A stretch of DNA of 64,000 nt, from contig CAZPLO010000004.1 of NCBI GenBank assembly GCA_964587725.1, positions 16,323 to 80,322 on the forward strand, read 5' to 3'. Each line of letters begins with the position of its first letter. Position 1 is the first letter of the stretch. Under the pieces are notes generated by a model. It did no database searches. It was not told where the DNA came from and saw only the letters and a list, made by a program, of their open reading frames with translations. Of this stretch, positions 9,762-57,277 are shown one piece after another. This DNA comes from an uncultured archaeon (GTDB lineage Archaea; Altiarchaeota; Altiarchaeia; IMC4; SCGC-AAA252-I15). The position numbers and the translations under genes are program-made.

Positions 9762-10351
9762 GGCCAGAGGGTTAGCCTCTGGTCCTTGATGACGTCGGGT
9801 GTCGTGAACTCGACGACCGTGGTGGAGCCTGTACGGGGTATGAACTTTATTTTGACCTCCTTGTTCTCGGCTATGCCGCCTGCGGAGCCGCCGCTGCAGT
9901 CGGCGCAGCTGAACTTGACCTTGAGTATGTCGCCCCGGCTCAAATAGCCGAGGTCGTAGTCCGGCCCCTGCTTCACATAGTATACTACGAACGTCTGCGT
10001 GTCCGGGGCGAGGTCGCCGTCTGAGACGTTGCCCCCGTATTCGAGGCTCTGCGATGTCGTGGAGGTGTCGACCAACAGGACGGTGTGGTTGAGGTTCAAT
10101 GCCTGGCTTCCCGCCTGCAGCTTCGCAATCACCTCGAAGTATTCGAGGTCGTGGTCGTTGCCGTCCGTGGCCATCACCGACAGCACCTCCATGCCGGTGG
10201 CCACGCCCTCCTCGGTCTGGGAGCCGGTGGTCAACGCCCTCTGCTGAAGGCTCCCGGAGGTGTTGATTAAGACGGCCGCTGCCACGGCAGCCACCAGTAT
10301 TACCGCTATGAATATGATGAGCGTGCCTATGCCCATCAAACCCCGGTCCAT
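9758..10351 (-). CDS. flaB: Archaellin (archaeal flagellin) with class III signal peptide
   Basis: From the internal ATG: [56 protein letters not shown], the canonical archaellin N-terminal domain. The extended ORF start at 10405 is probably not used. Confidence 0.75.
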
Positions 10352-10413
10352 GTAAAAGGATTGTGCGTCCGGGAATAAAAGAACTATATATTGGAGGAAC
10401 CACATGTATTACC

Positions 10414-10611
10414 ATGGCCGAGATTCCCGTTGCGCCGATGGCGAGGATACTTAGGAAGGCCAACATCGACCGGGTCAGCGACGAAGCGGCCGTCGCCTTA
10501 CGCGACGTATTGGAGGAGTACGCGGTGGGGGTGGCGGAGCGCGCCGGCAAACTGGCCCGCCACGCAGGCAGGGTTACGGTGAAGGCGGACGACATCAAAC
10601 TCGCGAAATAA
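10414..10611 (+). CDS. Archaeal histone (HMf family)
   Basis: 66 aa, MAEIPVAPMARILRKANIDRVSDEAAVALRDVLEEYAVGVAERAGKLARHAGRVTVKADDIKLAK, a typical histone fold. Start taken at the internal ATG of ORF 10363..10611. Confidence 0.8.
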   Translation: MAEIPVAPMARILRKANIDRVSDEAAVALRDVLEEYAVGVAERAGKLARHAGRVTVKADDIKLAK

Positions 10612-10712
10612 TTACTTAAGCTCCGGGCCCTGGTGTGCGAAGTCAACGACCATGCGACTCGGCGGAGTATGCCCTGCAAGTATGCAGTAGTCTAGGTCGT
10701 CTGAGTGAAGCC

Positions 10713-42649: not shown

Positions 42650-45586
42650 ATGCACAAGCCCGTTGAACGCCCGCGCGGGAGGGGCGGAGAACCGGGAGCC
42701 CCCGACGACCGCGGAACAGAGGCGCAGAGGGACATCATAGTCGTAACCGCCCCCACAATCAAGGACAAACTGATGTATCAGGGGATGCTGCATGCCGCCC
42801 GTTTGAAGGGGCCGGAAGACAGGGACGCCATAAGGGTAGTCGACTACCTTGCCACGCATGTCCGGGGGTTCCGGAACGTCGACCCCGACCGTCAGAGGGA
42901 AAGCCTTATGGAGGCTGTCGGGGGGGACGTCGACGCCAAGGCCATATACGTCAAAGACGAGAGAGGTTTCGTGAGAAACGCGAACGAAATCCGGGAGTCG
43001 CTCCGAGAAGGCGACATGAAGGATGTGGTGAAGCTGCTGAAGGCCGTTGAGGGGAGGGTCCACCGGGACGAGTACCTGTTCTACAAAGGCATGGTGGACG
43101 ACTACGCCGCCGAACACTGGTCTGAAGGCCCTAAACCCGAGGGCTGGAGCGACTACGAAGGCATCAGGGGTGAAGTGGAGGATAACCCCCTGATGAGGCG
43201 CGGGAAACAGGACGTCGGATTGGGCAGACGGCAGATAGAGTTGGTTGAGGCTAGCATCGAGGCATACAACCGGGCTGCTTCCCCCATGCTTCAGGGAATG
43301 GACGGGGAAACCCAGAGGGAGGCCAGCGCCCTCACCTCCTGGATGATGATAGACGAGATGAGCGAGGAAACACGGCTGGAGACTGTGGAGAGGCTGAGGC
43401 GGGTGTCCGAATCCGACATAGGCGCCGGCGTGAAGACGGACGTCATGGGGGACATAGTGGGCAGAGGCCTTAACATAGAGGTGGAGAAGACCATGCTGTC
43501 GTGGGTGGATGAGGGCCCTGAAACGTTCTTCAAAAACATAAGCTACATGGAGGGGGCGTGGATGTTCTCCAGGCCCCCGCAGGAGGAGGTGGATGAGGTT
43601 AAGGGCATAGTTGACTCCCTCCCCGAAGGGGATGGGGAGCAGTTCCTGAAGACCTACGTCAGACTCATTAAAATACGGTCCCCCATAGCCACGGAAGACC
43701 CGGACCGGAAAAACCCCACAAGGCGGCGGTACGTGAGAGACGTTAAACATGCCGTCGACTCAGGAGATGAATTCGGGTGGGTGATTGGCAGATACCACTA
43801 CAGAGCCATGGTCAACGGACTAGTCAACGAACTGGACCTCCTGCCGTCTGACGGGAAGCTCCGGCTGATTACGGGACTATACGACCTCCGGGGGAACGCG
43901 GAAACAGGGGATGACATGAAGAGGGTGGCGCAGGTTCTGGAGGTCTGCGAGAGGATGGACCCCGCCCACCGGCTCCCGTCGGTTTCGGAGATGCTGGTTG
44001 CGACCGAGTTCCTGTGGGCGGCCGCCGGAAAAAAGCCAGGGGCGGAGGCGATGTACACTATGTCCCTGGTGGCGTCGAACCACGAGCACCTGGAAAACCT
44101 TTTCAGATACACGAAGATGGTTGATGACAGACAGTTCAGGAAGATGGTGGGTGAGCTTGCAGACACCTCCGCCCAGCCGGCGCAGACCATCGAGGGAGTA
44201 AGGGAGGACAGTTACGCGGAAGAATACGGCAAGATGCTTGACAGGGGGGAGGTGGAGGGTTTGAGCGAAGGCGAGATCGACCGGCAGAAACACATGTTCT
44301 CCCTGTACGGAATCCTGGCGGACGACATACGGTACATGGACGCGGTGGGGCGGGCCGCCAACAGCATCGCCGACGTTAGCCCCGGGGCTGCGAAGGCTTA
44401 CTGGAACACATACTATGTGGAGCCTGCGGAGACGCTGTGGGACGGCTCCCTCAACGAGGAGAGGATGGCGGTCGGAGAGCTCGTTGATTCCGTGGGCAGG
44501 ATAACGGACCACATGTTCATCGGCGCCTTCGTTGAACATTACGCCGAGAACCCCGGTTCCATTGAGAGGGTAAATGATTTGGACGGCATGAAAATCAGGG
44601 GCGAGAGCCTCTCCAAGGAGGTGGCGCTGGCCATGGGCAGGAGCCCCGAACACCTGAAAATCCTCGGAGGAGACACCATAGACAAACTCGCCGACAACTA
44701 CCACGGCGGACGATACCTGGTGGAGGAGTTCCTCGATAGTTTGAAGAACGACGAACTCAACATGGCGAGGGCGTACGACGCACTGCTCCACGCGGACAAC
44801 AGGACCGCACAGAAACTTCGGAACGATTACTTGAGGGGCGGGCTGGCTGACGCCGACCTCGAGGGGGTGGAGTTGACGGCAGAGAACATAGGGGACGAAT
44901 TGGAGAGGGTTGCTGGGGAGAAGAAGGCGCGGGAGGATGCTGAACGGAGGTTCCGGCAGACTGTTTCAAAGGAACTCGGTGCCGTCGGAAAGGACTACCT
45001 GCATCTGGCTGATGCCGTTCCGGTGCTGCGCACTCCGGAACATGTGGAGTCGTTCGGCAGGTTGTATAGCGGAGTCGGCGAAAGGATGAGGTCGAGGGTT
45101 GTGGGGCTGGCGTTGGATGCGGCTGAGAGGCGGAAGACTGAAACCGCGGCGGAAATCATGGAGTCGGCAGATCTCGCGTCAAAACTGGAGAGCCTGTCTA
45201 AGACGCCTTATGCGGCTAACAATTTCATGGACGTATTGTACGCGGCAGCGCTCACCTCGGATGAGGGGGAGTTCGACGCGGGGGTGCGGCGGGTCTTCAG
45301 ACTGCGCGAGATACAGGAGGCCCTGGTGGTTGAGGGGGTGCTCGACTTCACCGGCGTCAAAGACGAGATGAGGGGAGACGCGGTTGAGATGGTGTTGAAC
45401 ACACCGCTGAAGCAGCGGCCGTTCCTTACGGCACTGCCGACCTCCGAAATGCTTGAGCACGGGGAGGGGCTGCGGAGGTTCATGGACGAGAACCCACACA
45501 TCGTCGAAGCCATGTCCAACACCGTTTACGTTGAGGCGAGGGAAAACGGCAGAACATACGTTCTGGGAGGTGGCGGCGGTGAATAA
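42650..45586 (+). CDS. Giant hypothetical cytoplasmic protein 1 (978 aa), acidic, no recognisable domain
   Basis: Uninterrupted ORF with protein-like composition. Antisense ORFs are Pro/His/Arg-rich junk. The stop overlaps the start region of the next giant ORF. Confidence 0.6.
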   Translation: MHKPVERPRGRGGEPGAPDDRGTEAQRDIIVVTAPTIKDKLMYQGMLHAARLKGPEDRDAIRVVDYLATHVRGFRNVDPDRQRESLMEAVGGDVDAKAIYVKDERGFVRNANEIRESLREGDMKDVVKLLKAVEGRVHRDEYLFYKGMVDDYAAEHWSEGPKPEGWSDYEGIRGEVEDNPLMRRGKQDVGLGRRQIELVEASIEAYNRAASPMLQGMDGETQREASALTSWMMIDEMSEETRLETVERLRRVSESDIGAGVKTDVMGDIVGRGLNIEVEKTMLSWVDEGPETFFKNISYMEGAWMFSRPPQEEVDEVKGIVDSLPEGDGEQFLKTYVRLIKIRSPIATEDPDRKNPTRRRYVRDVKHAVDSGDEFGWVIGRYHYRAMVNGLVNELDLLPSDGKLRLITGLYDLRGNAETGDDMKRVAQVLEVCERMDPAHRLPSVSEMLVATEFLWAAAGKKPGAEAMYTMSLVASNHEHLENLFRYTKMVDDRQFRKMVGELADTSAQPAQTIEGVREDSYAEEYGKMLDRGEVEGLSEGEIDRQKHMFSLYGILADDIRYMDAVGRAANSIADVSPGAAKAYWNTYYVEPAETLWDGSLNEERMAVGELVDSVGRITDHMFIGAFVEHYAENPGSIERVNDLDGMKIRGESLSKEVALAMGRSPEHLKILGGDTIDKLADNYHGGRYLVEEFLDSLKNDELNMARAYDALLHADNRTAQKLRNDYLRGGLADADLEGVELTAENIGDELERVAGEKKAREDAERRFRQTVSKELGAVGKDYLHLADAVPVLRTPEHVESFGRLYSGVGERMRSRVVGLALDAAERRKTETAAEIMESADLASKLESLSKTPYAANNFMDVLYAAALTSDEGEFDAGVRRVFRLREIQEALVVEGVLDFTGVKDEMRGDAVEMVLNTPLKQRPFLTALPTSEMLEHGEGLRRFMDENPHIVEAMSNTVYVEARENGRTYVLGGGGGE

Positions 45587-48500
45587 ATTCTACAGGGTCG
45601 ACGACGGACGCCTGCGTGAAGAAGACCCTGATGCCGTCGGAGGGTTGAAACGGACCAGGGCAGATGTCAACGCCGAAAGGATAACGGAGGGTGAGGTGCC
45701 GCCGCAGTTGATGCCGCCTCTGATGCATGCTATGGCGGACGAGCCACGCCGCATGTACGACGCATACCTGTTCAGCGCCAAAAACCCGGAAGGCTTCGAA
45801 ACAGTCAATGGCCTCCTCAGGGACGGTAGGATAGATGCGGACGAATTCAACACAGCCGTGAAACTGGGGGTGGACCGGCCGGCGGCGTTCAAGGATTTGA
45901 AGGACGTCATCTCCGAAGGCGGTGAAATGGTGGAGCGGTCGAGACTCGTCCTGGCGGTGGCTGCCAGAGGCTATGACAGGTTCGTTGAAGACAGTCTGCT
46001 GGCGGCCATGGACGACGAGCTGGGACTGGAGGATGTGAGGAAGCTGACGCGGGAGCTGAAGGCTGGCGAGGTAGGGGAATCAGAACTCAAGGGTAAACTT
46101 GAATCCCTGTGGCCGCAGCCGGAACCCCTGGAGCAGGAAGTCCGGGAGGTGGTGCAGCCGGAGGTACGTGAGCCGGAGATCACGCCGGAGGAGAGGAAAG
46201 CCAACCAGGTTGAAGACAGCATAATGACCACCTTCCCCGACGAGCACTGGAACCGGGCCGCCGACGCCTACGCCAGGTTCAAGGACGGCGGCCACAGCCT
46301 CACCGAAACCGAATGGCGGGACGTATTCCACGCCGTCGGGAGAACCCATGAAGACCGTTTCCCGGAGGAGAAGATACTCTATTTTGAAAACATGATGGCG
46401 CAGCCGGAGCACATAAGCATGTACGTGAACAATGAGAGACTCAGCAGGGCTTGGAAGCTGATGGAGGGTGTGGGCGCGGACATAAGATACAACCCAGACC
46501 AGGATTTCAGGAGGGAGTCGTTCAATACAGTATTCCTCAGAGAGCCCGAAGTCTTCCAGTTCCTGACAGGGGAAAAATCAGATTCCATAGGGGAAGCGGT
46601 TAATGGGGTGAGGGTTGTGTGCGGACGCGATAACGCGCTGAAGTACCTGAGGCACATTATCTCCCACCGCGGACAGGCGGACGTGCTTGCTGACGCGTCT
46701 CGGGTGACCAGGGCGGGTATGCTGGTGGACTCGGTCAATGAAGAGGAAGGCGGGTTGCGGGAGAGAGCATTCTATGACGTGTTCCTGTCCGAACCCGGCG
46801 ACTTCCAGCTGCTGACGGGAGAGATGGCAGGCGGCCTCCGGGAGGCTGTGTCGACGGTGGACTCCCCCGTCGAACACCGGCTGAGGTTCCTAGAGCACAT
46901 GCTGTCACCGGAAGACCCCGGCAGAGACTACATGGAGGCTGTGGCGGACGGCAAAAGCTTCGGCATCGCGGCGAACGTCATGGACGGCCTGCGGCACATC
47001 ACCCACGAATTCAACAACGGCAGGGGCGTGTTCAAATCCGACGAGGCGCTGGCGGAGGCAATGGCGGGATACGGCCTGGAGGGAAGATACGACGACATGG
47101 TGTTCGAGAGCGTGTTCATCCGCTCCCCTGACACCTTCAGAAGAATCGCCAGCGGGAAATCCCACGAGGCCATGAGGGAGATACTGACGGACAACGATAA
47201 AATCCGGAGTGCGGGCCACTACATGAAAGACTACATACTGCTGCTGGGCAAGAGACCCGAGGTGCTGGGGAACTTCATAGAGGTGGAGGAGGGCAGGATC
47301 ATATGGGCGGACAGGATACCCGTGTACATCAGCGCAGTCTCGCGGCTGCAGGACGGGGACAGACGCGTTAAACGGTACTTCCATGCGATGATGGGCGGCA
47401 GCGAATACGCGACGGCTTTGAGCAACCCCGAAGTCATCGACAGAGCCCTTGGCTACCTCCGAGACCCCAACGTTATGCGCTACCTGCAGCCGACTACGGC
47501 AGTGCACCCCGACTTCATGGCCATGGACAGGGAGGAGCAGGCGGCTGAGCTGAACACAGTCCGCAGAATCATAGAGGAGGAAGAGAGGGTTGAGGCTCCT
47601 CATAGGGAGGGGCCTGGGGTCAAGGAACCCCGGCGACGGGAGAGGGAAGCCGGCGTGGAGAGGGAACGCAGGCCTCTGAGGCTGACCACAACGTTGCACG
47701 GGGTTATGATACCGAATCCCGAGTACGCGTCGATGGAGTGGGAGGGAGTGGACTCCGAGGTCCGGAGCATGTTCACGTTGAACACCACCCACATGAGCGC
47801 GAGCGAGATAGGGAAGCTCAGGGAGCTGAACCTGCCGTACCACCAGTCGCTGATATTCAACGTGCTGACCAACGTCAGCGGCAGACTGGAGGCTTCAGTG
47901 GACGAACTTCAGAGGATTATGATGATGCATCCGCTGGTGGGCGTGGTCTACGGAGGCGAGGGGGGCAGGGACAACCTGCTCGCCGACATACGGGCCATGA
48001 GCGAAGGAAACATGCCCCTCTACGCCGCAGGGGGCGTTGTGGGCATAAGGGAGGATTACACCAACATAGGCAGGACCGACGTCGGCGAAGCCAGGGGCAG
48101 CATCATGCGGGAGGCGGGAGGCGAAGACCAGGTCGCCGTACTGACTGCACTGGCGGAGTCAGAGGACCATCACGCCAGGATAGACGACGTCATAACCAAG
48201 GTGGCGGGCTTCACGGGCCGGCACCCCTCCGACATTTCAGACACAGTCAGGGGGGTGGTGGGCGAGCTGAAGAAGCAGGGTGTTTTGGTGAACGCGGAAC
48301 CCACGGGCAACGAGGTGTTGTTGAGCCCGTCGTTCATAGCCGAGGTCCAGGGCATGAAGGTGCCTGAGGCCTACTGGAGCACGTACCGGCACGTGGTGGA
48401 TCCGCTGGCGAGGGTGCGTGGCATGTATTTGGCTGAGTTCGGAGACGAACCCGGCGTAGAGGACTTCAACCCCCGTATGGTGTCAACAGAGCAGGGGGTG

Positions 48501-49208
48501 CGGGATGCGGTCGCGATGTTCAGCAGCAGGGACGACGCCATCATAACACGGAGGCTGGCTCTGCTGAAGATTATGTCCAGGCTGAACCTGGACCTGAACC
48601 ACGGCGCCAAGCTGGAGAACATCAGGAGGCATGCGGGTGAGGCGGGGTTGAGCGACACGATGGTGAACAGGGTGCTACCGCAGCTGGTGGACGACAGGGA
48701 AGGCGTGTTGCAGAGGGTGGCGCTCGGATACTACAGGATAAACCCGCGATACTGGGCCAAGAAGGAGACCGTCTACGGGGAGATAGAGTACGGTGAGTTC
48801 GACCGCACGAATCCGGAGATGCATGGGAACATAGACGGTGAACGAGTGGAGGCAGATGTGATGAGAAAAGTGGATGAGAGGGACGTGGGGGATGCTATGA
48901 CGCTTCTGAAATCCATCTCCCACCAGCACCGGCGGAGACGGTACTGTGCGAGAGCCAGCGACCTCCGGGATTTGATGAGGATGTGGGGGGTTGACGTCTC
49001 ACTGGAGGATGTGACACGCGACCTTGACGCCCTAGGGAAGAGCATCGAGGCGCCGGTGCGGGTGAGGGACAGGTGGGTGGACGGTGAACTGGTTCAGGAG
49101 GAGGTGCCCGTGGGCGCGTCGTATCCTCCGCTGGTTGACAAGTATTCGCCGCCGGAGGCGTCTCAAGAAAGATATTTCATATTCAACCCCAGCGGACACT
49201 ACAGCTGA
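45579..49208 (+). CDS. Giant hypothetical cytoplasmic protein 2 (about 1210 aa) with three internal repeats of about 90 aa
   Basis: A likely GTG start at 45579 (or 45570) is preceded by GGAGGT at 45565-45570 and overlaps the upstream TAA, so the listed ORF from 45453 is probably over-extended. Repeats FNTVFLREPEVFQFLTGEKS, FYDVFLSEPGDFQLLTGEMAG and FESVFIRSPDTFRRIASGKS. Confidence 0.6.
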   Translation: MNKFYRVDDGRLREEDPDAVGGLKRTRADVNAERITEGEVPPQLMPPLMHAMADEPRRMYDAYLFSAKNPEGFETVNGLLRDGRIDADEFNTAVKLGVDRPAAFKDLKDVISEGGEMVERSRLVLAVAARGYDRFVEDSLLAAMDDELGLEDVRKLTRELKAGEVGESELKGKLESLWPQPEPLEQEVREVVQPEVREPEITPEERKANQVEDSIMTTFPDEHWNRAADAYARFKDGGHSLTETEWRDVFHAVGRTHEDRFPEEKILYFENMMAQPEHISMYVNNERLSRAWKLMEGVGADIRYNPDQDFRRESFNTVFLREPEVFQFLTGEKSDSIGEAVNGVRVVCGRDNALKYLRHIISHRGQADVLADASRVTRAGMLVDSVNEEEGGLRERAFYDVFLSEPGDFQLLTGEMAGGLREAVSTVDSPVEHRLRFLEHMLSPEDPGRDYMEAVADGKSFGIAANVMDGLRHITHEFNNGRGVFKSDEALAEAMAGYGLEGRYDDMVFESVFIRSPDTFRRIASGKSHEAMREILTDNDKIRSAGHYMKDYILLLGKRPEVLGNFIEVEEGRIIWADRIPVYISAVSRLQDGDRRVKRYFHAMMGGSEYATALSNPEVIDRALGYLRDPNVMRYLQPTTAVHPDFMAMDREEQAAELNTVRRIIEEEERVEAPHREGPGVKEPRRREREAGVERERRPLRLTTTLHGVMIPNPEYASMEWEGVDSEVRSMFTLNTTHMSASEIGKLRELNLPYHQSLIFNVLTNVSGRLEASVDELQRIMMMHPLVGVVYGGEGGRDNLLADIRAMSEGNMPLYAAGGVVGIREDYTNIGRTDVGEARGSIMREAGGEDQVAVLTALAESEDHHARIDDVITKVAGFTGRHPSDISDTVRGVVGELKKQGVLVNAEPTGNEVLLSPSFIAEVQGMKVPEAYWSTYRHVVDPLARVRGMYLAEFGDEPGVEDFNPRMVSTEQGVRDAVAMFSSRDDAIITRRLALLKIMSRLNLDLNHGAKLENIRRHAGEAGLSDTMVNRVLPQLVDDREGVLQRVALGYYRINPRYWAKKETVYGEIEYGEFDRTNPEMHGNIDGERVEADVMRKVDERDVGDAMTLLKSISHQHRRRRYCARASDLRDLMRMWGVDVSLEDVTRDLDALGKSIEAPVRVRDRWVDGELVQEEVPVGASYPPLVDKYSPPEASQERYFIFNPSGHYS

Positions 49209-49263
49209 AGTTTAAATTATTTTGAATTTTTTATAAATTATTTATAAAATATTCTAAATTTTT

Positions 49264-50148
49264 TCAACTCGATTTGATGCCGGAGAACAGAGCCAGAACC
49301 TCCACCCCCTCGGCGCTGTCGTCGACCGTGTTAGTCCATATGAGGCTGGCTTCCCCTGCCTCCGCGGATATCCTGTCCAGCGCATCCTGCAGGCCGCGCA
49401 ATGCCTTGGAGTGGGTGGTGAAGTTCAGCAACACCCCGGACGCGGTGCCGACGTCCCCGCCTACGAGCGGAGAAGACAGCGCCGACTCAACCGCCTTGGC
49501 CAGGGTGGGTCCGACTCCGTGGCCGATGGCCCCGTAGCCGGTGAGCAGCGGCCGCAGGTTATCGAGGCCGGAGTCGATTATCAGCTTCACCATGCCACGG
49601 ACAGCCTCCAACAGCAGGTGGTTGACTTTCGTGAACGCATCCCGTATCGACAAATCCGGAACCACCTTCAGGAAACGGTCGTTCTCTATCACCACTATCA
49701 GGTCGCAGTAGGGGTGGAGGTTGTCGAGCGCGGCTTTGGCGTTGCTCCTGCACACCTTCCCCTCCGCAGTGAACGGTGTGTTCACGAAAGCCACAACGGT
49801 GCTGCCGTGCTCCTTCGCAGCCTCCGCCACAATCGGCGACGCCCCCGCGCCGGTGCCGCCCCCTATGCCCGCGATGACAAAGGTTGCTTCCGCGCCGGCG
49901 AGCACGCCCGCCAGTTTGTCGCGGTCGCCTATGGCTGCCTGCTCCCCCAGCATGATGTTGTTGCCGGTGCTCCTCCCCTTGGTGACATCCCGTCCAATCA
50001 ACACCTTGGTGGGGACCTTACGTTCCAGCAGGGACATTGCGTCGGTGTGTACGGCTATGAGCTCGCAGCCGCATTCACCCATGCGCTCCACGGTCGCGCA
50101 CCCGCTGCCTCCGACCCCCACCACCTTGATTGCGTGCCCGGAAGACAT
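49264..50148 (-). CDS. ftsZ: FtsZ/tubulin-family GTPase, compact (294 aa, no C-terminal linker/tail)
   Basis: IKVVGVGGSGCATV (G1), GGGTGAG (T4 tubulin signature), DLIVVIENDRFL (FtsZ NDxxL). The C-terminal domain ends VEVLALFSGI. The T7 region GLDNLRPLL is divergent from GLINVDFADV. Confidence 0.7.
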   Translation of the reverse strand: MSSGHAIKVVGVGGSGCATVERMGECGCELIAVHTDAMSLLERKVPTKVLIGRDVTKGRSTGNNIMLGEQAAIGDRDKLAGVLAGAEATFVIAGIGGGTGAGASPIVAEAAKEHGSTVVAFVNTPFTAEGKVCRSNAKAALDNLHPYCDLIVVIENDRFLKVVPDLSIRDAFTKVNHLLLEAVRGMVKLIIDSGLDNLRPLLTGYGAIGHGVGPTLAKAVESALSSPLVGGDVGTASGVLLNFTTHSKALRGLQDALDRISAEAGEASLIWTNTVDDSAEGVEVLALFSGIKSS

Positions 50149-50149
50149 T

Positions 50150-51064
50150 CTATTTCAGCATCTGCCCTTCATCGGAGAACATGGACTCCAGCCACTTCAT
50201 CAGCTCCGGGCCCCCACGCCGGATTGGCTGGCTGGACAGCACCTCCTTGAACACCATGTCGGAGGTTTCATCCGGTTCCCTCTCACCCCCGAGTACCTGA
50301 GCGGCATCGCCAAGGAGTTCACCCGGCTTCTTCTCCACCCCCCGATCTGCAAGCTCATTGGCCAGCTTCTCCGACGAATCAGCCATGGCCAAAACCATCT
50401 CCTGCCGGCTTTCCGGCACACCCTGCTCCGTCAGAAGCCTCTTTGCCTCGTCCCTGCCTTCTGCAGCGGATTCCACAACAGCCTTGGCAGCCTCCAGGTT
50501 AACGACCATGTCGTCCGCGCTCGCCTTCACACGCATATCAGACACCTGGTCGTCGAGCACGCTGTTAATCTTCTCCTCCGCACCGGGAAGCTTCGATGAG
50601 TCGACTCCGCGCGACGTCTGAATGACCTCCGCCGCCACGGTGCCCTCGGCGGTGCGGGCCATCTCGTCCGCCTCCCCCGGAGTCACATTTATGGAACCCT
50701 CGCGGTTGGCTATGGACCAGGTCTCCCGGCCGAGGTCTTCAGCACCTGTCAAATCCCCCTGCGAAGCCATGGACTCCGAAGCCACCGCGGTCCTCAGCTC
50801 AGTGTCGGTCGTCGCCTGGTCCTGCCCCCCGGTGTCGAGCAATGACTTGTTACGTCCCACGGGGCTGCCGGGCCTGTCCAGTTCGGGGGCCTTCTCCAAT
50901 TTCACCCCGTGGCCGGCCTCGACCCCCACCAACTGCTCATTCAACCTTTTTTTCTCGTCCGGCGGCAGCTGCCTCCTTAACTCCTCGGCGGACACCCTAT
51001 CTGTCCCGGCCATTTCAGCCACGTCTTCGGCCGTGGGCCTACGCTTCAACGCCGTGTCCGCCAT
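50150..51064 (-). CDS. Acidic low-complexity (likely disordered) protein translationally coupled to the FtsZ-like gene
   Basis: Internal ATG of ORF 50150..51553 (the upstream extension overlaps the divergent promoter and the + gene). 305 aa, rich in A, E, D, G, S and T. The C-terminal peptide PELMKWLESMFSDEGQMLK is amphipathic. Its stop lies 1 nt from the ftsZ-like ATG. Confidence 0.5.
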   Translation of the reverse strand: MADTALKRRPTAEDVAEMAGTDRVSAEELRRQLPPDEKKRLNEQLVGVEAGHGVKLEKAPELDRPGSPVGRNKSLLDTGGQDQATTDTELRTAVASESMASQGDLTGAEDLGRETWSIANREGSINVTPGEADEMARTAEGTVAAEVIQTSRGVDSSKLPGAEEKINSVLDDQVSDMRVKASADDMVVNLEAAKAVVESAAEGRDEAKRLLTEQGVPESRQEMVLAMADSSEKLANELADRGVEKKPGELLGDAAQVLGGEREPDETSDMVFKEVLSSQPIRRGGPELMKWLESMFSDEGQMLK

Positions 51065-51118
51065 AACGTTTAATACTGGGCAGTATGTACTTAAATCCGT
51101 TGAATCCAAGTTCAATAG

Positions 51119-52081
51119 ATGGAGAACGAGCTTCGGCGTGACTATTTTCTGGACCGCCATGTTATCATCGCGGTCGGGCGCGGGAAGCGGCCGACCGACT
51201 TCAAAAAAGATGGTGCGGCAGAGGATGGCGGGGGGAAGACCTGCTTCTTCTGCCCAGGCAACGAGCACACGACGCCACCGGAGATAAGCAGGGTTGAAGA
51301 GGACGGGAGGTGGGTGATACGGGTGTTCCCCAACAAATTCCCCGCGGTAACGAAGGAGGAGGGGGAGGCAGGAGAGTATCTGATGCCCGCCTACGGCGAC
51401 CACGAGGTGGTGGTGGAAAGCCCAGTCCACGGGGAGACGGTGGCGGACTTGAGCTTGAACAGGATAGCCCAGGTCCTGAAGGTGTACATGGAGAGGGTTG
51501 AGGCGATGCTGTCCGACCCGAAGGCAGAGTATGCGCTGGTGTTCAAAAACCACGGCAAAAAAGCTGGTGCGTCTCTAAGCCACACCCACACCCAGATAAT
51601 TTCGCTGCCGGTGGTGCCGGAGCTGGTCCGGGAGGAGGCTGACGCCGCCGACGCCCACATAACCTGGAAGGGCTCGTGTCCGCTGTGCGACGCCTGGAAA
51701 AAAGAATCCGGCGGGCCCAGGAGCGTGTGGGAGGACGAAAACGTCTCAGTATTCACGCCCTACGCCTCCAGATCCCCCATGGAGGCCTGGGTGGTGCCTA
51801 AAAAACACGCTCTCCAGCTGAGCGACTTGACGGGTGAGGAGATGGGAGGCATGGCCTATGGTTTGAAGCTGCTGCTGCAGTCTTTGAAGGAGAGGCTGGG
51901 AGACCCGGCATACAACATGGTCCTGCATTTAAGCCCCGCGGGAAGAGACCTCCACATGCACTTTGAACTGCTTCCTAGGCTTTCAAACTGGGCTGGGTTC
52001 GAACTGGGTTCCGGGATAATAATCAACAGCATGCCGCCGGAGACGGCTGCGGAGTTCTACAGGAGCGGAGAGGGTATTTAA
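51119..52081 (+). CDS. Galactose-1-phosphate uridylyltransferase-like HIT-superfamily nucleotidyltransferase
   Basis: CFFCPGNEHTTPPE zinc knuckle and HTHTQ (HxHxQ) catalytic motif. 320 aa. Confidence 0.7.
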   Translation: MENELRRDYFLDRHVIIAVGRGKRPTDFKKDGAAEDGGGKTCFFCPGNEHTTPPEISRVEEDGRWVIRVFPNKFPAVTKEEGEAGEYLMPAYGDHEVVVESPVHGETVADLSLNRIAQVLKVYMERVEAMLSDPKAEYALVFKNHGKKAGASLSHTHTQIISLPVVPELVREEADAADAHITWKGSCPLCDAWKKESGGPRSVWEDENVSVFTPYASRSPMEAWVVPKKHALQLSDLTGEEMGGMAYGLKLLLQSLKERLGDPAYNMVLHLSPAGRDLHMHFELLPRLSNWAGFELGSGIIINSMPPETAAEFYRSGEGI

Positions 52082-52100
52082 TCCAGTATTTTATATTTTT
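52072..52100 (+). promoter_or_regulatory. AT-rich promoter region (gtatttaatcc ... ttttatatttttt) before ATG 52105
   Basis: The only AT-rich block near the start. It overlaps the 3' end of the upstream gene. Confidence 0.35.
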
Positions 52101-52104
52101 TAAG

Positions 52105-53982
52105 ATGAGGACTGCCCTGTCGCTGACGCTGGTCTTGCTTCTGACATGCTGTTCCGCAGCACAGGAACCCAGTGTCCTCACCCAGATGTGGGAGCAGAGC
52201 CCCATACCCCTCGGAGAAACCGCAGTGGTGGTGGACGCCTACGTGGGGGACCTGGACAACAACGGCGTTGAGGAAGCGTGCGTTGTTACGTCAGGGGTGG
52301 CGACCGGCCGGACCGCAACCCAGAAGAACAGGGTGGTGGCCTACGGCGCCAACGGCACAGTCTTCTGGACCTATGGAGTAGACGGCAGAGTGCGGGCCTC
52401 CGCCCTCTACGACATAAACAACGACCGCAACCTCGAGTTCATAGTTTCAAGCGGGGAGAAAATGAACCTGCTGCAGAGCGGCAGCATACGGGTGATAGGG
52501 GGTTTCGGAAACCTTCTGAGGAGTTTCAGCTCCAGCGCCATAGTAGATTCCATGTACGTGACCGACATGGACGGCGACAGATACTATGAGATAGTGGGTG
52601 GGGGCGTGAAGAGGGTGTTCCTGTACAGGAGCTTCGGGGAGAACATATGGCATTACCCCCCCGAAGGCGGGGGAGGATTCAACGTCTCGGTGAACGCCGT
52701 CCACTCAGCAGACATAAACGGCGACGGCGTAAGCGAAGTCGCGGCTGGAGCGGACAGGATATACTACATAGACTTGGAGGGAAACCTCATGGGTTCGGTG
52801 GACACGGAGCCGGAAGTCCACCAACTCAAGAAGGGATTCAAATACCTTGAGATGGTAAGGCTGGGCGGGGGAGGGTACCTGGACACCCTCGCCGTCACCG
52901 AATCGGACAGGATAGTGGCCGTCGGCGTGGAGGACGGCATGATGCAGCAGGATGTTTTTAAGATAAAGTTGAACATCCGCTGGACCACCGACCTCGGGTG
53001 CACCGTCAACGCCGTGGAGACATACAACATAGACACAGACGATTTCACAGAGGTGATAGTGGCGTGCTCCGACAACAAGGTCTACGCCATAGACAACAAC
53101 GGGTGGACTGTCTGGGAGTACCCCCTCGACGGGGAGCCCATGGACCTGTACATAAAGGACATGGACGGCGACGGCCTGGAAGACCTGTTGGTGGGGACTT
53201 CAAGCGGCTCCATCTACCTGCTCGACCTTTCAGGAGACTTTAAGTGGATACACAAGACCGGCTCCCCCGTGGTGAAGGTCGCCGCCGGGGACATCGACGG
53301 AGACAGGATGAACGAGGTGTTCGTGGTCTCGGAGGAGCCGCTGGCGAAGGCCTACGCGGTGAACGAGACATATACGCTTAGAAGGAGGGCGGACACCACC
53401 TTCAACATGGGTCAGGAAGCGTACATAACCTCCGACTACGACGACGCCCTCAAGTACTTCAGGGAGGCTTCGGACCTGTACAGGCGCCTAGGCAGTGAAA
53501 AAGGGGTTATGGATTCTCAGACCTTCATAGCCAAGATAGAGTCCAGGATACTGGAGGAGAGGAGGGCGGAGGCGGACATATTCTATGAGCGCGCGCAGGA
53601 CGCGTTCATCGCAGGCGACTATGCCGGAACACGGCAGCATGTGGGACGGGCGAAAGGCATATACGAGGAATTCGGGGACATAGACGGGGTAGTGAAGTGC
53701 GAGCTGCTGGAGGTGAGGATAGACCAGCAGACAGGGGTGGTTGAGCCCACGGTGACACTGCCCAGGTCCACCTCCACCACCGTCCCCGACACGGGCGGAG
53801 GCGGGGACAACACCCTCCTGATTATTCTCGCCGGAGGCGTGGGACTGCTCGCCGCCGTATTCATCATGAAAAGACGGTCGGCTGGCGCCGAAACCATAGA
53901 TGAGTCCGTGGACTCGTCCAAGGACGCGTGGGAGCGTGAGGTTCTCGGGTTGGACGATGAAACAGAGGAGGATGTGAAATGA
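52105..53982 (+). CDS. Surface protein: signal peptide, FG-GAP beta-propeller repeats, TPR-like helical repeats, C-terminal TM
   Basis: Signal MRTALSLTLVLLLTCCSAAQ. FG-GAP-like units (DLDNNGVEEACVVTS, DINNDRNLEFIVSSG, DMDGDRYYEIVGGG, DINGDGVSEVAAGA, DMDGDGLEDLLVGTSSG, DIDGDRMNEVFVVS). Helical units YDDALKYFREASDLYRRLGSEKG and YAGTRQHVGRAKGIYEEFGDIDG. Anchor LLIILAGGVGLLAAVFIM. Confidence 0.7.
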   Translation: MRTALSLTLVLLLTCCSAAQEPSVLTQMWEQSPIPLGETAVVVDAYVGDLDNNGVEEACVVTSGVATGRTATQKNRVVAYGANGTVFWTYGVDGRVRASALYDINNDRNLEFIVSSGEKMNLLQSGSIRVIGGFGNLLRSFSSSAIVDSMYVTDMDGDRYYEIVGGGVKRVFLYRSFGENIWHYPPEGGGGFNVSVNAVHSADINGDGVSEVAAGADRIYYIDLEGNLMGSVDTEPEVHQLKKGFKYLEMVRLGGGGYLDTLAVTESDRIVAVGVEDGMMQQDVFKIKLNIRWTTDLGCTVNAVETYNIDTDDFTEVIVACSDNKVYAIDNNGWTVWEYPLDGEPMDLYIKDMDGDGLEDLLVGTSSGSIYLLDLSGDFKWIHKTGSPVVKVAAGDIDGDRMNEVFVVSEEPLAKAYAVNETYTLRRRADTTFNMGQEAYITSDYDDALKYFREASDLYRRLGSEKGVMDSQTFIAKIESRILEERRAEADIFYERAQDAFIAGDYAGTRQHVGRAKGIYEEFGDIDGVVKCELLEVRIDQQTGVVEPTVTLPRSTSTTVPDTGGGGDNTLLIILAGGVGLLAAVFIMKRRSAGAETIDESVDSSKDAWEREVLGLDDETEEDVK

Positions 53983-55832
53983 GGTGTTGGACGGCCTTGG
54001 CTGTTTTGATGCTCGCAGCCTCGGCTGCGGCGGTGACTTCAGAGTTCGAAGCCGACAGCCTCTACCAGACCGCCGACTCGTTCTACAAGAGCGGAGACTA
54101 CGAGAACGCGTTGAAGAGCGCCCACTTATCCAGGAGAATCTACGAGGACATGGGGAACAGCTGGGGCGTGGACAGGGCCAACGCCCTCATCAACAACATA
54201 GAGTCTATGCTTTCGAAGAAGCAGCTGGCCGACACATACTACAACATAGCCGGCGACTACTTCCTGCAGACCCATCAGAACCCGGAGATAATGGACAGGG
54301 CGGTGAACATGGCCGGGAGGGCGAAAAGCCTTTATGAAGACCTCGGCGACTCATCCGGAGTACTGAAGTGCGAGGACCTTATTGAACGCGCCAACAACCG
54401 CATAGACGCCATATTCAACCAGTGCGTGAAGGAGGGGGACCAACTGTACCAGGACGCTCAGAGCAGCTTCTTCCTCCAGGAGTACGTGGACGCCCGGGAG
54501 TACGCTTTAATCGCAAGCGAGAAATACGCCAGCTGCCCGTACCAGCAGGGCATGGACAGGACAGACTCCCTGCTGTCGTCGATAAACGCGAAGATAAGAG
54601 AGATAAAGATAAACGCGCAGGCCAGCTACGACAAAGCCATAGACTACCTCGCCGAAGACGACTACGAACGGTGCAAGGAATATGCCGCATCCTCGCAGAG
54701 GCTGTTCCAGCAGATAGAGGATGACGAAGGCATCACCAGCGCGACCTCCCTGCTGACCAGATGCAACAGGGGCATCGTGGAGTGGGAGGAGGACATGGTG
54801 AGGCAGGCTGAGTCCTGCATGGCGGAGGCGCGGACATACTCCATAATACCCAACTGCCTCAACGCCACCGAGAAGGTCAGCTGCGCCAGAGACATCTACC
54901 AGGAACTCTACAGCTACTGGCGCGAAAGGGAGAAGGGACTGTCGGCACACCTGCAGGTTAAGACCGGATTATATCAGTCTTACCTCAGCGAAGTCAACGC
55001 ATTGAGTTCCAGCATAGACGCCACCTGCGGGGAGCAGAGGATGCTGGGGATAGCGGAGGACTTCTACCGGCAGAGCCAGGGATACTACCTCGAAAACGAC
55101 CTCAACGAGGCCATGTCCTACGCCAACAAGGCCAGGGAGCTTTTCGTCCAGTTCCAGAGATATGTGGGGATATCGAAGGTGGACTCCCTGATAGCGCAGA
55201 TAGAGGCGCGGATGAGGCAGCGGACGGAAGCGGATTCGTTTATGAAGAACGCGGAGTCATACTACACCACCGCAGCCTTCGAGGACGCGTTAATTGATGC
55301 TACCAAGGCCCGGACCATTTACTCGAACATGAAGGATGAGGAGAACATTCAGGCGGCGGAGGAGCTGATTGAGAGGATAAACAACGGCTCCCAGCGGCTG
55401 GACGCAGCCAACGGCCACTACAGCAGGGCCAGGAGCTATCTGGAGTCTGGGGACTACAGGAACGCCCTCGAATACGCGAGGCAGGCCGAGTCAGGGTATT
55501 CCGCAGTCAACTACACCCTCGGGGTCGCGGAGTCCCAGGCGATAATAGAGGAGAGCAGGGAGGCCTTGGCCGAGGACGAGGCCGCGTTCAGGAACACATT
55601 AATCATAATAGGGTTCATAGCGTTGGTGGCCGGCTTCCTGATTATACAGTTCATGCGCCGCCGGAGGATGATGGAGATGCAGTATGAGGAGCGGAAGGCC
55701 GAGGAGGAGGCTTTGACCAAGAGGCGTGACGAGGAATGGGCTCTCAGGAGAGAGGATGAGACCAAGACCCAGGTGGAGGACGAGCTCCGCAAACTCATAG
55801 AGGATGAGAGGAGCAAGGCGGAGGGGCCGTGA
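53979..55832 (+). CDS. Surface protein composed of about eight tandem 55-60-aa TPR-like helical repeats, with a C-terminal TM and charged tail
   Basis: ATGA overlap with the upstream gene. Signal MRCWTALAVLMLAASAAAV. Units such as YQTADSFYKSGDYENALKSAHLSRRIYEDMGNSWGVDRANALINNIESML and YYNIAGDYFLQTHQNPEIMDRAVNMAGRAKSLYEDLGDSSGVLKCEDLIERANNRIDAIF. Anchor LIIIGFIALVAGFLIIQFM, then a KR/E-rich tail. Confidence 0.65.
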   Translation: MRCWTALAVLMLAASAAAVTSEFEADSLYQTADSFYKSGDYENALKSAHLSRRIYEDMGNSWGVDRANALINNIESMLSKKQLADTYYNIAGDYFLQTHQNPEIMDRAVNMAGRAKSLYEDLGDSSGVLKCEDLIERANNRIDAIFNQCVKEGDQLYQDAQSSFFLQEYVDAREYALIASEKYASCPYQQGMDRTDSLLSSINAKIREIKINAQASYDKAIDYLAEDDYERCKEYAASSQRLFQQIEDDEGITSATSLLTRCNRGIVEWEEDMVRQAESCMAEARTYSIIPNCLNATEKVSCARDIYQELYSYWREREKGLSAHLQVKTGLYQSYLSEVNALSSSIDATCGEQRMLGIAEDFYRQSQGYYLENDLNEAMSYANKARELFVQFQRYVGISKVDSLIAQIEARMRQRTEADSFMKNAESYYTTAAFEDALIDATKARTIYSNMKDEENIQAAEELIERINNGSQRLDAANGHYSRARSYLESGDYRNALEYARQAESGYSAVNYTLGVAESQAIIEESREALAEDEAAFRNTLIIIGFIALVAGFLIIQFMRRRRMMEMQYEERKAEEEALTKRRDEEWALRREDETKTQVEDELRKLIEDERSKAEGP

Positions 55833-55834
55833 AT

Positions 55835-57277
55835 ATGATAGACAGTATAATGGACATCTCCAAGAGGAGGGGCATCGTCTACCCGTCCTTCGAAATATAC
55901 GGGGGAGTAAGCGGGTTCGTCGACTACGGACCCATGGGTTCGCGGATAAAACAGAACATAGAGGACCTGCTGCGGCGACACTATGTGGTCTGCCAAGGCT
56001 GCTTTGAAGTCCAGTGCCCCACGTTGAGTCCGGAGGATGTGTGGATTGCGTCCGGCCACGTCAACAGCTTCGCCGACGTCATGACGGAATGCAATAAATG
56101 CGGGGAATGCTTCCGCGCCGACAAACTCTTGTCCGGGGCGGGGGTGGAGGCTGAGGGTATGCCGCCGGAGCAGATGCATTCGCTGCTGGTGGAGAACAAA
56201 ATCGTGTGCCCCGACTGCGGGTGCGGGCTATCGGAGCCGTACGAATACAACCTCATGTTCCAGACCAGCATCGGCGCCGGCAAAGGCGGTAAGACAGGTT
56301 ACATGAGGCCTGAGACCGCGCAGTCCACGTACCTGGCGTTCAAGCGGCTGTGGGAGTTCGCCCGCAGGCGGCTGCCGTTCGGCGTCATCCAGATAGGACA
56401 CTCCTTCAGGAACGAGATAAGCCCCCGGCAGGGCATGATTCGGCTGCGAGAGTTCAACCAGGCGGAGATACAGTTTTTCATGGACCCCGAAGACAAGTCC
56501 GCGCCGGGGTTCTACGAGGTATTGGGGCGGAATGTCACGATAAAGGACAAGAACGACCGGATGCTGGAGACGACGCTGGGTGAGGCCCATGAAAAGGGCG
56601 TTATAGAGATACAGTTCATCGCCTACCAGCTGGGGAAGGCGTTGGATGCATTCGAGGACATGGGAATAGACCCGGGGAAGCTGCGGCTGCGGCAGCACCG
56701 CGACGACGAGCGCTCCTTCTACAGCAGCGACACTTGGGACGTCGAGTACGTGAGCGACGTGTACGGGGAGATAGAGATAGTCGGCATCGCAGATAGAACA
56801 GACTATGATTTGAAGCAGCACATGGAACACAGCAAGGAGAGGATGACTGTGTCTTATGATGGGCGGAAGTTCGTCCCCCACGTAGTCGAAGTAGCATACG
56901 GCATAGACCGTCCGATATACTGTGTCCTGGAGAGCTGCCTCCGCTCCGAAGAGGATAGGACAGACTACTTCGCGTTCCCCAAACAGGTGGCCCCGTATCT
57001 GGCTGGTGTTTTCCCTCTGGTGAGGAAAGACGGCATCCCAGAGAAGGCGGATGAAGTGTTCAAGTTGTTGACGGACATGGGCCTGTACGTGTTCTCGGAC
57101 CGCTCCGGAAGCATCGGGAAACGGTACGCCCGCGCAGACGAAATAGGGGTTCCATACTGCGTGACAATAGACTACGACACCCTCGAGGACGACAAAGTCA
57201 CCGTCCGCAACAGGGACAGCACAGAGCAGGAGAGGGTTAATGTGGAGGAACTTGGGAACTTCCTTCTGCACTTATAA
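55835..57277 (+). CDS. glyS: Glycyl-tRNA synthetase (alpha2 type)
   Basis: MIDSIMDISKRRGIVYPSFEIYGGVSGFVDYGPMG, RPETAQSTYLAFKRL...GVIQIGHSFRNEISPR and EIGVPYCVTIDYDT are co-linear with class II alpha2 GlyRS. The ATG lies 2 nt after the upstream stop; the track's GTG 55829 is an alternative. Confidence 0.85.
   Translation: MIDSIMDISKRRGIVYPSFEIYGGVSGFVDYGPMGSRIKQNIEDLLRRHYVVCQGCFEVQCPTLSPEDVWIASGHVNSFADVMTECNKCGECFRADKLLSGAGVEAEGMPPEQMHSLLVENKIVCPDCGCGLSEPYEYNLMFQTSIGAGKGGKTGYMRPETAQSTYLAFKRLWEFARRRLPFGVIQIGHSFRNEISPRQGMIRLREFNQAEIQFFMDPEDKSAPGFYEVLGRNVTIKDKNDRMLETTLGEAHEKGVIEIQFIAYQLGKALDAFEDMGIDPGKLRLRQHRDDERSFYSSDTWDVEYVSDVYGEIEIVGIADRTDYDLKQHMEHSKERMTVSYDGRKFVPHVVEVAYGIDRPIYCVLESCLRSEEDRTDYFAFPKQVAPYLAGVFPLVRKDGIPEKADEVFKLLTDMGLYVFSDRSGSIGKRYARADEIGVPYCVTIDYDTLEDDKVTVRNRDSTEQERVNVEELGNFLLHL

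Follow-up and report, generated by a model that had tools for sequence, protein, structure and literature searches.

A core-only FtsZ-like protein of the Altiarchaeota with a shortened T7 loop and a tightly coupled acidic partner

The usual picture of FtsZ-family proteins is one of treadmilling polymers that hydrolyse GTP and rely on their tails for recruitment, and lineage-specific paralogues of the tubulin family are common in archaea. Here we describe two adjacent genes, encoding a core-only FtsZ-like protein and an acidic partner, from a 64,000-nucleotide stretch of DNA (hereafter, the window) of an uncultured member of the Altiarchaeota (GenBank assembly GCA_964587725.1, contig CAZPLO010000004.1, forward-strand positions 16,323 to 80,322). 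Extra FtsZ proteins that end after the globular domain have been described in bacteria, namely A. tumefaciens FtsZ1, R. meliloti FtsZ2, and Magnetospirillum FtsZm (10.1101/412759). In archaea, N. maritimus Nmar_1262 is an FtsZ-like protein without the NVDFAD T7 loop that is not a division protein and forms no polymer in yeast (PMC3684127), and the haloarchaeal membrane anchor of FtsZ1, CdpC (HVO_0399), has terminal modules joined by a long disordered linker, one end binding the globular domain of FtsZ1 (10.64898/2026.07.16.738847). Tail-less FtsZ paralogues (10.1101/412759) and a T7-less archaeal FtsZ-like protein (PMC3684127) are thus already known. What is new at the present locus is the combination: a retained nucleotide pocket, a fixed set of Ser, Thr, Ala, Cys and Asn replacements, a truncated T7 loop, no tails, and a dedicated, coupled partner with a conserved terminal helix. 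We found no description of the clade to which the protein belongs, or of its partner, in the searchable literature.

The two genes lie on the same strand of the window, the partner upstream:
49264..50148 (-): FtsZ-like gene, 294 aa, core-only (open reading frame [ORF], Pfam, AlphaFold2, Foldseek)
50150..51064 (-): partner gene, acidic, 304 aa, N-terminal half predicted disordered, C-terminal half predicted helical (ORF)

The FtsZ-like protein carries the G1 motif (GVGGSGC), the tubulin signature GGGTGAG, which fits the pattern [SAG]GGTG[SA]G, and NDRFL, all three motifs reported in an initial annotation of this DNA, and matches Pfam Tubulin (PF00091) with an E-value of 1.2e-28 and 101 bits against a cut-off of 33. 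The Pfam FtsZ_C domain scores 25.2 bits, slightly under its cut-off of 27. Despite this shortfall, the complete C-terminal domain that the annotation had claimed is borne out by structure prediction and comparison. The AlphaFold2 (AF2) model, built from an 84-sequence alignment, has a mean predicted local distance difference test score (pLDDT) of 92.8 and a predicted template-modelling score (pTM) of 0.91, and it contains the two-domain FtsZ/tubulin fold (GTPase domain, helix H7, C-terminal domain). Foldseek aligns it with solved bacterial and archaeal FtsZ structures at template-modelling (TM) scores of 0.82–0.94, about 0.92 over roughly 302–307 columns. The closest solved relative is M. jannaschii FtsZ1 (phmmer E-value 3e-46; TM about 0.93), whereas similarity to CetZ structures is far lower (E-values 5e-11 to 6e-5). 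The first strand of the model begins at residue 7, and the last spans residues 282–291 of 294. A complete C-terminal domain that stops three residues after its last strand leaves neither a linker nor a C-terminal peptide, as first annotated. The protein also lacks the 35–90-aa N-terminal tail of archaeal FtsZ1, and only 5–10 residues precede strand S1 in members of its clade. Engineered T7-loop deletion mutants of S. aureus FtsZ that are still folded (3WGK, 3WGL) were among the Foldseek matches.

Within 5.8 billion clustered proteins this clade comprises 31 clusters, 44–100% identical to the FtsZ-like protein and 292–311 aa long, with the single exception of a 366-aa member that has an N-terminal extension. 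Similarity then drops abruptly, the next matches being canonical FtsZ proteins at 39% identity and 187 bits. All named members come from Candidatus Altiarchaeota or Altiarchaeales metagenome-assembled genomes. We placed the clade in a neighbour-joining tree (295 trimmed columns, 150 bootstrap replicates, our own distance and tree-building code) together with archaeal FtsZ1, FtsZ2-type proteins (P0111 and three from the PMC9871819 supplement), bacterial FtsZ, and two divergent outgroups. It is monophyletic in 96% of the bootstrap replicates and separate from the CetZ-like outgroup, in keeping with its better match to FtsZ than to CetZ. The canonical families group without it in 69% of replicates, and it joins bacteria or archaea alone in 2–4%. 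On average, clade members are 35% identical to FtsZ1, 34% to bacterial FtsZ, and 30% to FtsZ2, whereas the canonical groups share 39–46% with one another (FtsZ1 and bacterial FtsZ 45.5%, FtsZ1 and FtsZ2 43%); this archaeal clade therefore diverges more than the bacterial and archaeal FtsZ families do from each other. On these comparisons the clade can safely be taken not to nest within FtsZ1 or FtsZ2.

With M. jannaschii FtsZ1 (1FSZ/1W58) and H. volcanii HVO_0717 the clade shares the two-domain fold and the G1, T4, PF..EG, and ND motifs, and in its EG and NDR(F/L) motifs it follows the FtsZ1/bacterial and not the FtsZ2 type. The FtsZ2 motifs MGGGTGTG, PFxLER (Glu not followed by Gly), DNxKL, and PSLINLDFAD, a list that we derived from four to five FtsZ2-type sequences and not from a curated definition, are absent; the clade has (I/L)GGGTGAG, PFTAEG, and ENDRFL. 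Hallmarks of FtsZ1 are missing as well, namely the MDSIV-type N-terminal peptide, helix H0 (TDEEL..VL..LKT), and the ftsZ1-secE-nusG(Spt5) gene context, which is replaced by partner, GalT, FG-GAP, and glycyl-tRNA synthetase (GlyRS) genes. The clade further differs from FtsZ1 in having no C-terminal linker or GIDF-type peptide, in a T7 loop that is five residues shorter and without D235 and D238, and in the replacement of T3, R169, and D212.

A plain explanation would be a fast-evolving housekeeping FtsZ, that is, an orthologue of FtsZ1 or FtsZ2 whose partner is a lineage-specific membrane anchor. Several sources do annotate the clade proteins as 'cell division protein FtsZ', and no second FtsZ lies within the 64-kb window, but we regard this explanation as highly improbable. 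The curated ftsZ equivalog of NCBIfam, TIGR00065, gives the protein 200 bits, well under its cut-off of 295.2, and Altiarchaeota possess both canonical FtsZ1 and FtsZ2-type proteins. Their FtsZ1 proteins P0034 and P0058 have the MDSIV peptide, helix H0, an intact T7 loop, and a C-terminal tail, and lie in an ftsZ1-secE-nusG(Spt5)-L11-L1-L10 context; the supplement of PMC9871819 contains FtsZ1-, FtsZ2-, and CetZ-like sequences of Altiarchaeota. The clade motif GRSTGN does not occur in the 47 supplementary files of PMC9871819, some of them truncated, and, judged by those files, that survey seems to have missed the clade. Because Altiarchaeota also have FtsZ1 and FtsZ2, the FtsZ-like protein is, on sequence grounds, most likely a third FtsZ paralogue specific to this lineage. 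This agrees with the initial annotation, which had called the gene a non-canonical FtsZ rather than the housekeeping one: the protein stands outside FtsZ1 and FtsZ2, and its catalytic Asp is absent on proper alignment.

One clade member, P0018 (L091 5001–6101), has a 72-aa P/Q/E-rich N-terminal extension that starts with MESLADMVAD and resembles the FtsZ1 peptide MDSIVxDAI; by this resemblance it may be a remnant of an FtsZ1 origin of the clade.

The residue changes that set the clade apart emerge from a comparison of its 31 members with 39 canonical FtsZ proteins (26 archaeal, 13 bacterial), with canonical positions in M. jannaschii numbering:
49546..49575 (-): shortened T7 loop with the beginning of helix H8, residues 192–201, SGLDNLRPLL (alignments; gap in 31/31)
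V234–D238 (T7): canonical D235 in 39/39 and D238 in 36/39; deleted in 31/31 clade members
49957..49977 (-): altered T3 loop GRSTGNN, residues 58–64, replacing GLGAGxxP (clade alignment)
G96 and A97 (T3): canonical G in 39/39 and A in 36/39; S and T in 31/31 clade members
P101 (T3): canonical P in 36/39; mostly I/M/L in the clade
49843..49863 (-): T4 tubulin signature GGGTGAG, residues 96–102, kept (motif)
T137 (T4): canonical T in 34/39; A in 31/31 clade members
49750..49752 (-): Cys133 in place of the T5 arginine R169 (R invariant in canonical proteins; C in 31/31 clade members)
49621..49623 (-): Asn176 in H7, in place of the guanine-contacting D212 (D invariant in canonical proteins; N in 31/31 clade members)
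N51 (T1): canonical N in 37/39; mostly A/S in the clade
Q74 (T2): canonical Q in 33/39; variable in the clade

When the T7 region GLDNLRPLL is aligned with GLINVDFADVKAV, a five-residue gap removes both catalytic aspartates of the canonical synergy loop N-x-D-F-A-D, D235 and D238. Both are present in all 26 archaeal canonical proteins, and the bacterial ones have D235 in 13/13 and D238 in 10/13. The AF2 model shows helices H7 (residues 168–193) and H8 (195–201) separated by a single-residue break, so that the T7 loop is essentially gone. The loss of the catalytic Asp from GLDNLRPLL, which the initial annotation had noticed in this one protein, therefore holds for all 31. In the T3 loop the Ser, Thr, Gly, and first Asn of GRSTGNN are invariant in the clade, and the second Asn is found in 24 of the 31; the motif also served as a clade-specific DNA search pattern. 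(Patterns back-translated from the clade alignment were too generic for this use: a contig scan with them returned 80 loci, 78 of them ordinary FtsZ and two from the clade.) The T3 motif of tubulin is GAGNNW, and the clade loop resembles it in ending N-N-hydrophobic. The Asn in H7 is common to the clade and to two CetZ-like or divergent outgroup sequences. The pocket motifs G1, T-D, GGGTG, P-F..E-G, and N-D are invariant in the clade, and the roughly 44 invariant positions across the 31 full-length members, which go down to 44% identity, are concentrated in the nucleotide pocket. Here, then, is a natural, conserved FtsZ that keeps its pocket and has a private partner but no longer has tails, a catalytic loop, or three pocket residues that are invariant elsewhere.

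A pocket whose motifs stay invariant while the parts that activate hydrolysis are lost is evidently under selection, and an intact, strongly conserved pocket means that the core would most likely still bind GTP. Aspartate mutants of the FtsZ T7 loop bind GTP but fail to activate its hydrolysis. In such mutants GTPase activity is lost and the polymers are hyperstable or poisoned, and in Haloferax the corresponding variants of FtsZ1 and FtsZ2 do not function (10.1101/2020.06.04.133736). Since the T7 loop acts in trans and is lost here along with several hydrolysis residues, GTP hydrolysis would be slow or nil in any polymer or dimer of the FtsZ-like protein, which might then exist as a static filament or as a GTP-locked assembly unit. 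At the longitudinal interface the T3 loop of the top face meets the T7 loop of the bottom face, and because both are changed we infer a co-adapted, homotypic interface: the remodelled faces would match each other and would not mix freely with FtsZ1 or FtsZ2.

The same residues can be read in another way, in which the protein, without tails and with a defective T7 loop, modulates the division ring by assembling together with FtsZ1 or FtsZ2. Being unable to trigger hydrolysis in the subunit below, it would cap or stabilise filaments, and the partner would tune or sequester it. The intact nucleotide pocket suits this role, and a precedent exists in beta-tubulin, which lacks the catalytic T7 residue, GTP being locked at the intradimer interface. 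There are also precedents within FtsZ: the tail-less A. tumefaciens FtsZ1 forms no polymer alone and co-polymerises with the main FtsZ (10.1101/412759), and T7 point mutants assemble together with wild-type protein and poison division (10.1101/2020.06.04.133736). With both longitudinal faces altered, however, the protein should fit poorly onto canonical subunits; its identity to FtsZ1 and FtsZ2 is just 30–35%, known co-polymerising paralogues being much closer; and no ftsZ1, ftsZ2, or sepF lies near the gene in any locus seen. On balance we consider a ring modulator unlikely.

The tail-less bacterial paralogues resemble the clade in having no linker and no C-terminal peptide, and they are presumed to be specialised or regulatory (10.1101/412759). 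They are, however, close copies of the host FtsZ (that of A. tumefaciens is 49% identical to the E. coli tubulin domain; 10.1101/412759), and no dedicated upstream partner of this kind has been reported for them. Nmar_1262, which we liken to the clade by its features alone, has also lost GGGTGTG (PMC3684127), whereas the clade keeps GGGTGAG and the whole pocket.

Four bacterial FtsZ homologues among the Patescibacteria-type matches (P0076, P0095, P0113, and P0114; about 297–309 aa) also end directly after the globular domain, and in three of them the second T7 aspartate is replaced (IDFSTV, IDFASV). The combination of a missing tail and a changed T7 loop may thus recur among FtsZ proteins of small-genome lineages.

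The partner gene accompanies the clade closely. A same-strand upstream ORF without a Pfam match is found in 10 of 11 distinct orthologous loci (the window, L001, L002, L003, L084, L085, L088/L092, L090, L091, and L094), and in eight of these ten the distance from partner stop to FtsZ-like start is −4 to +8 nt. The window junction reads ...ATG CTG AAA TAG a ATG TCT..., with exactly 1 nt between the two genes, which is the spacing first annotated. The adjacency noted there in a single genome thus proves to be conserved, and with it the amphipathic C-terminal motif of the partner. We took the ATG at 51064 as the partner start; the ORF can formally be extended up to a GTG at 51553, a start that we disfavour because the longer frame would overlap the divergent GalT/HIT gene (start 51119).

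Ala-Ala stands directly before the stop in 10 of 14 partner C-termini (L002, L003, L084, L085, L090, L091, and L094, and P0123, P0126, and P0127), the stop abutting or overlapping the FtsZ-like start; either a feature of the protein or a constraint from translational coupling could be responsible.

The window copy of the partner has an isoelectric point (pI) of 4.54, a net charge of −24, 68% disorder-promoting residues, and no cysteine, and ends in ...PELMKWLESMFSDEGQMLK. Its orthologues (281–553 aa, pI 4.5–6.0) share 16–31% identity with it and are therefore fast-evolving. Two short segments stand out in the alignments:
50171..50209 (-): conserved C-terminal amphipathic helix PELMKWLESMFSD, residues 286–298 (aligned in 13/13 partner sequences)
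50837..50872 (-): second short motif PGSPVGRNKSLL, residues 65–76, in the disordered half (alignments)

The C-terminal module, a short helix (M/V-L-K-E-F/L-L) followed by a basic patch and the terminal motif, is the best-conserved feature of the partner. The terminal helix follows the consensus [DE]-[LIF]-[MLI]-x-[WRMH]-[LIV]-E-x-[MIL]-[FLM]-[ST]-[DE] in all 13 partners, with the core form [DE]-L-M-x-W-I-E-x-M-F-[ST]-D, and the second motif has the consensus P-G-S-P-x-x-R-x-x-S-L-L. An AF2 chimera of the FtsZ-like protein and the partner places residues of about 48–113 of the latter at a pLDDT of about 30 and predicts several helices at 80–93 in residues of about 160–280. The chimera alignment covered the FtsZ part only, and the partner part is accordingly a provisional, single-sequence prediction. 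The initial annotation had described the partner as a disordered acidic protein. Its acidity is confirmed, but disorder throughout is not, the model provisionally confining it to the N-terminal half.

For the amphipathic end of the partner, that annotation had offered membrane binding or protein binding. In most orthologues the helix has a hydrophobic moment of 0.50–0.67 and a net charge of −1 to −3 and is moderately hydrophobic; these scores refer to orthologue segments, the window's own helix not being the segment scored. A net negative helix favours binding to protein over binding to membrane, so the second proposal is the more plausible, and membrane targeting by a helix of this charge and only moderate hydrophobicity is unlikely. 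The same holds for the anchor role that a housekeeping FtsZ would ask of the partner: partner N-termini carry a basic cluster, with no hydrophobic amphipathic helix and no hydrophobic N-terminus; neither a basic amphipathic helix nor a transmembrane segment is present; and the conserved helix is net negative. We also considered whether the segment ELMKWLESMF might be a detached FtsZ1 helix H0 (DEELRRIVEGIKT) and rejected the idea. A position-specific matrix from 28 distinct H0 sequences ranked it top in 1 of 13 partners, with scores no higher than those of shuffled sequences.

Searches with the single partner sequence and with a nine-sequence profile returned the query itself and one orthologue only, and an exhaustive phmmer search found six relatives among 1.84 billion representatives. 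The partner has no match in Pfam, NCBIfam, PADLOC, or the PDB sequences.

Taken together, these features lead us to favour, with moderate confidence, the reading that the gene encodes a third, GTP-binding but hydrolysis-poor FtsZ paralogue that assembles with itself in a static or GTP-locked form and whose core is bound in trans by a co-translated adaptor. The recruitment and tethering functions of the missing tails would be supplied by the upstream partner, whose C-terminal helical domain and amphipathic helix would bind the FtsZ-like core, while its disordered N-terminal half, with the short conserved motifs, could reach other components. By analogy, CdpC comes closest to such an adaptor as a functional precedent, though the partner fails its defining features. 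Both are fast-evolving proteins of about 300–350 aa with conserved terminal modules and a disordered stretch, and binding to the core, known for CdpC (10.64898/2026.07.16.738847), is what we propose for the partner. CdpC, however, contains two zinc ribbons and carries at its N-terminus an amphipathic helix that binds membrane; the partner has neither, and contains no cysteine. No sequence similarity was detected between the two, and CdpC has not been reported as translationally coupled to ftsZ1, whereas the partner gene abuts the FtsZ-like gene.

If this reading is right, the pair shows, as an experiment of nature, what an FtsZ core can do without hydrolysis, and offers a prokaryotic counterpart of the interface in the tubulin heterodimer at which GTP is not hydrolysed. 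The partner would be a second archaeal adaptor, after CdpC, that addresses the globular domain instead of the tail, and the clade a third FtsZ family in a phylum that, being uncultivated, offers no other access to its cell biology. Recombinant production is feasible for the two proteins, which are both small.

Divergent from the pair lies a block of genes that recurs with it:
51119–57277 (+): GalT/HIT-like, FG-GAP propeller, TPR-like, and GlyRS genes

Two of the products are membrane proteins, a 625-aa FG-GAP propeller and a 617-aa TPR-like protein whose start overlaps the preceding stop by 4 nt; both carry a signal peptide as well as a C-terminal transmembrane segment and a short acidic cytoplasmic tail. 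The block is kept at least partly beside every orthologue seen (the window, L001, L002, L003, and L090–L094), with the GalT/HIT-like gene in most loci and both membrane proteins and GlyRS wherever the fetched sequence extends. One could imagine a self-contained, two-gene cytoskeleton outside division, with a GTP-locked core that builds static filaments and whose T3 and T7 faces evolved jointly into a non-hydrolysing interface, a co-translated adaptor that has taken over every tail function, and a role in cell shape or the envelope, possibly acting via the cytoplasmic tails of the always-adjacent FG-GAP and TPR-like proteins. CetZ and tubulin-like archaeal paralogues are likewise non-division members of the tubulin superfamily. 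We hold this specific role to be doubtful, and attach little importance to a connection with the membrane proteins because an unrelated housekeeping gene sits in the same conserved block.

Several observations weigh against the reading of a third paralogue served by an adaptor in trans. Our tree is a neighbour-joining tree only, and the position of the clade outside canonical FtsZ may be a long-branch effect. The evidence for canonical FtsZ1 and FtsZ2 concerns Altiarchaeota in general and not the same genome as a clade member. An acidic residue is kept at the start of H8 (D/E in 28/31) and might partly replace the lost catalytic Asp. The physical interaction between the partner and the FtsZ-like protein has gene order as its one line of argument; the chimera says nothing about docking, and in it the partner's C-terminal peptide reached a pLDDT of only 54–71. 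Unrelated genes such as GlyRS are syntenic too, and gene order is sticky in this lineage generally. Lastly, locus L093 (orthologue P0029) has no upstream partner gene, and therefore the partner is not indispensable, or has been relocated elsewhere.

Some of these points, namely the missing partner at L093 and the synteny of the unrelated GlyRS and GalT genes, would together with the loss of catalytic residues also fit a decaying or functionless paralogue beside an unrelated neighbour, their adjacency reflecting slow genome rearrangement. Decay, however, should not leave 31 members that are intact and full-length at identities as low as 44% and have the replacement residues Ser, Thr, Cys, and Asn fixed in 31/31, nor a fold predicted with high confidence. 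The spacing of −4 to +8 nt has been kept across deep divergence while the downstream side varies, and the terminal motif of the partner is conserved in 13 sequences. We therefore think decay very improbable, more so than any other explanation considered here, and retain the third-paralogue reading.

At L093 the GalT gene is missing as well, and a 211-bp AT-rich gap (4790–5000) lies directly beside the FG-GAP gene. L084, the closest relative of this locus, has the partner, with a degenerate terminal motif (HIEELLTGE).

In the window the pair is flanked by elements that suggest its transcription:
51088..51095 (-): TATA-box-like TTTAAGTA, centre about 27 nt 5' of the partner ATG (read from sequence)
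49209..49263 (no strand): AT-rich gap of 55 bp with T runs, from the FtsZ-like stop to the stop of a convergent 1251-aa ORF, a likely transcription-unit end

TTTAAGTA may be the promoter from which both genes are transcribed as one leaderless message, its spacing from the start fitting that usual in archaeal leaderless transcripts. It lies inside the 54 bp (51065–51118) that separate the divergent starts of the partner and GalT/HIT genes. With one promoter-like site and one terminator-like gap on its flanks, the transcription unit looks like exactly these two genes. The near-palindromic ATTTAAGTA / TACTTAAAT in 51065–51118 could be a bidirectional TATA element shared by both directions.

The downstream side of the pair is variable, with tatA-tatC-tatA in five loci and other genes elsewhere. 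In the window, two giant acidic ORFs, 42650–45586 (+; 978 aa) and 45453–49208 (+; 1251 aa), which overlap each other by about 130 nt and are convergent with the FtsZ-like gene, sit where orthologous loci have tatA-tatC-tatA and Memo/AMMECR1; neither has a Pfam, NCBIfam, or PADLOC match. The GC content of the window is about 58%, and that at the pair is the same as in its surroundings. We rejected an origin in a mobile element or defence system, given the unremarkable GC content, the conserved chromosomal synteny, and the lack of a PADLOC match. Among the 46 larger window ORFs scanned with Pfam there was no second tubulin-family gene and no SepF gene. The window further encodes three aminoacyl-tRNA synthetases, aspartate-semialdehyde dehydrogenase, SAICAR synthetase, and many FG-GAP/PQQ propeller surface proteins. 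A 215-aa ORF at 9758–10405 (-), overlapped by a longer, alternative same-strand ORF (8724–10679), matches the archaeal flagellin (archaellin/pilin-like) family with an E-value of 8e-29.

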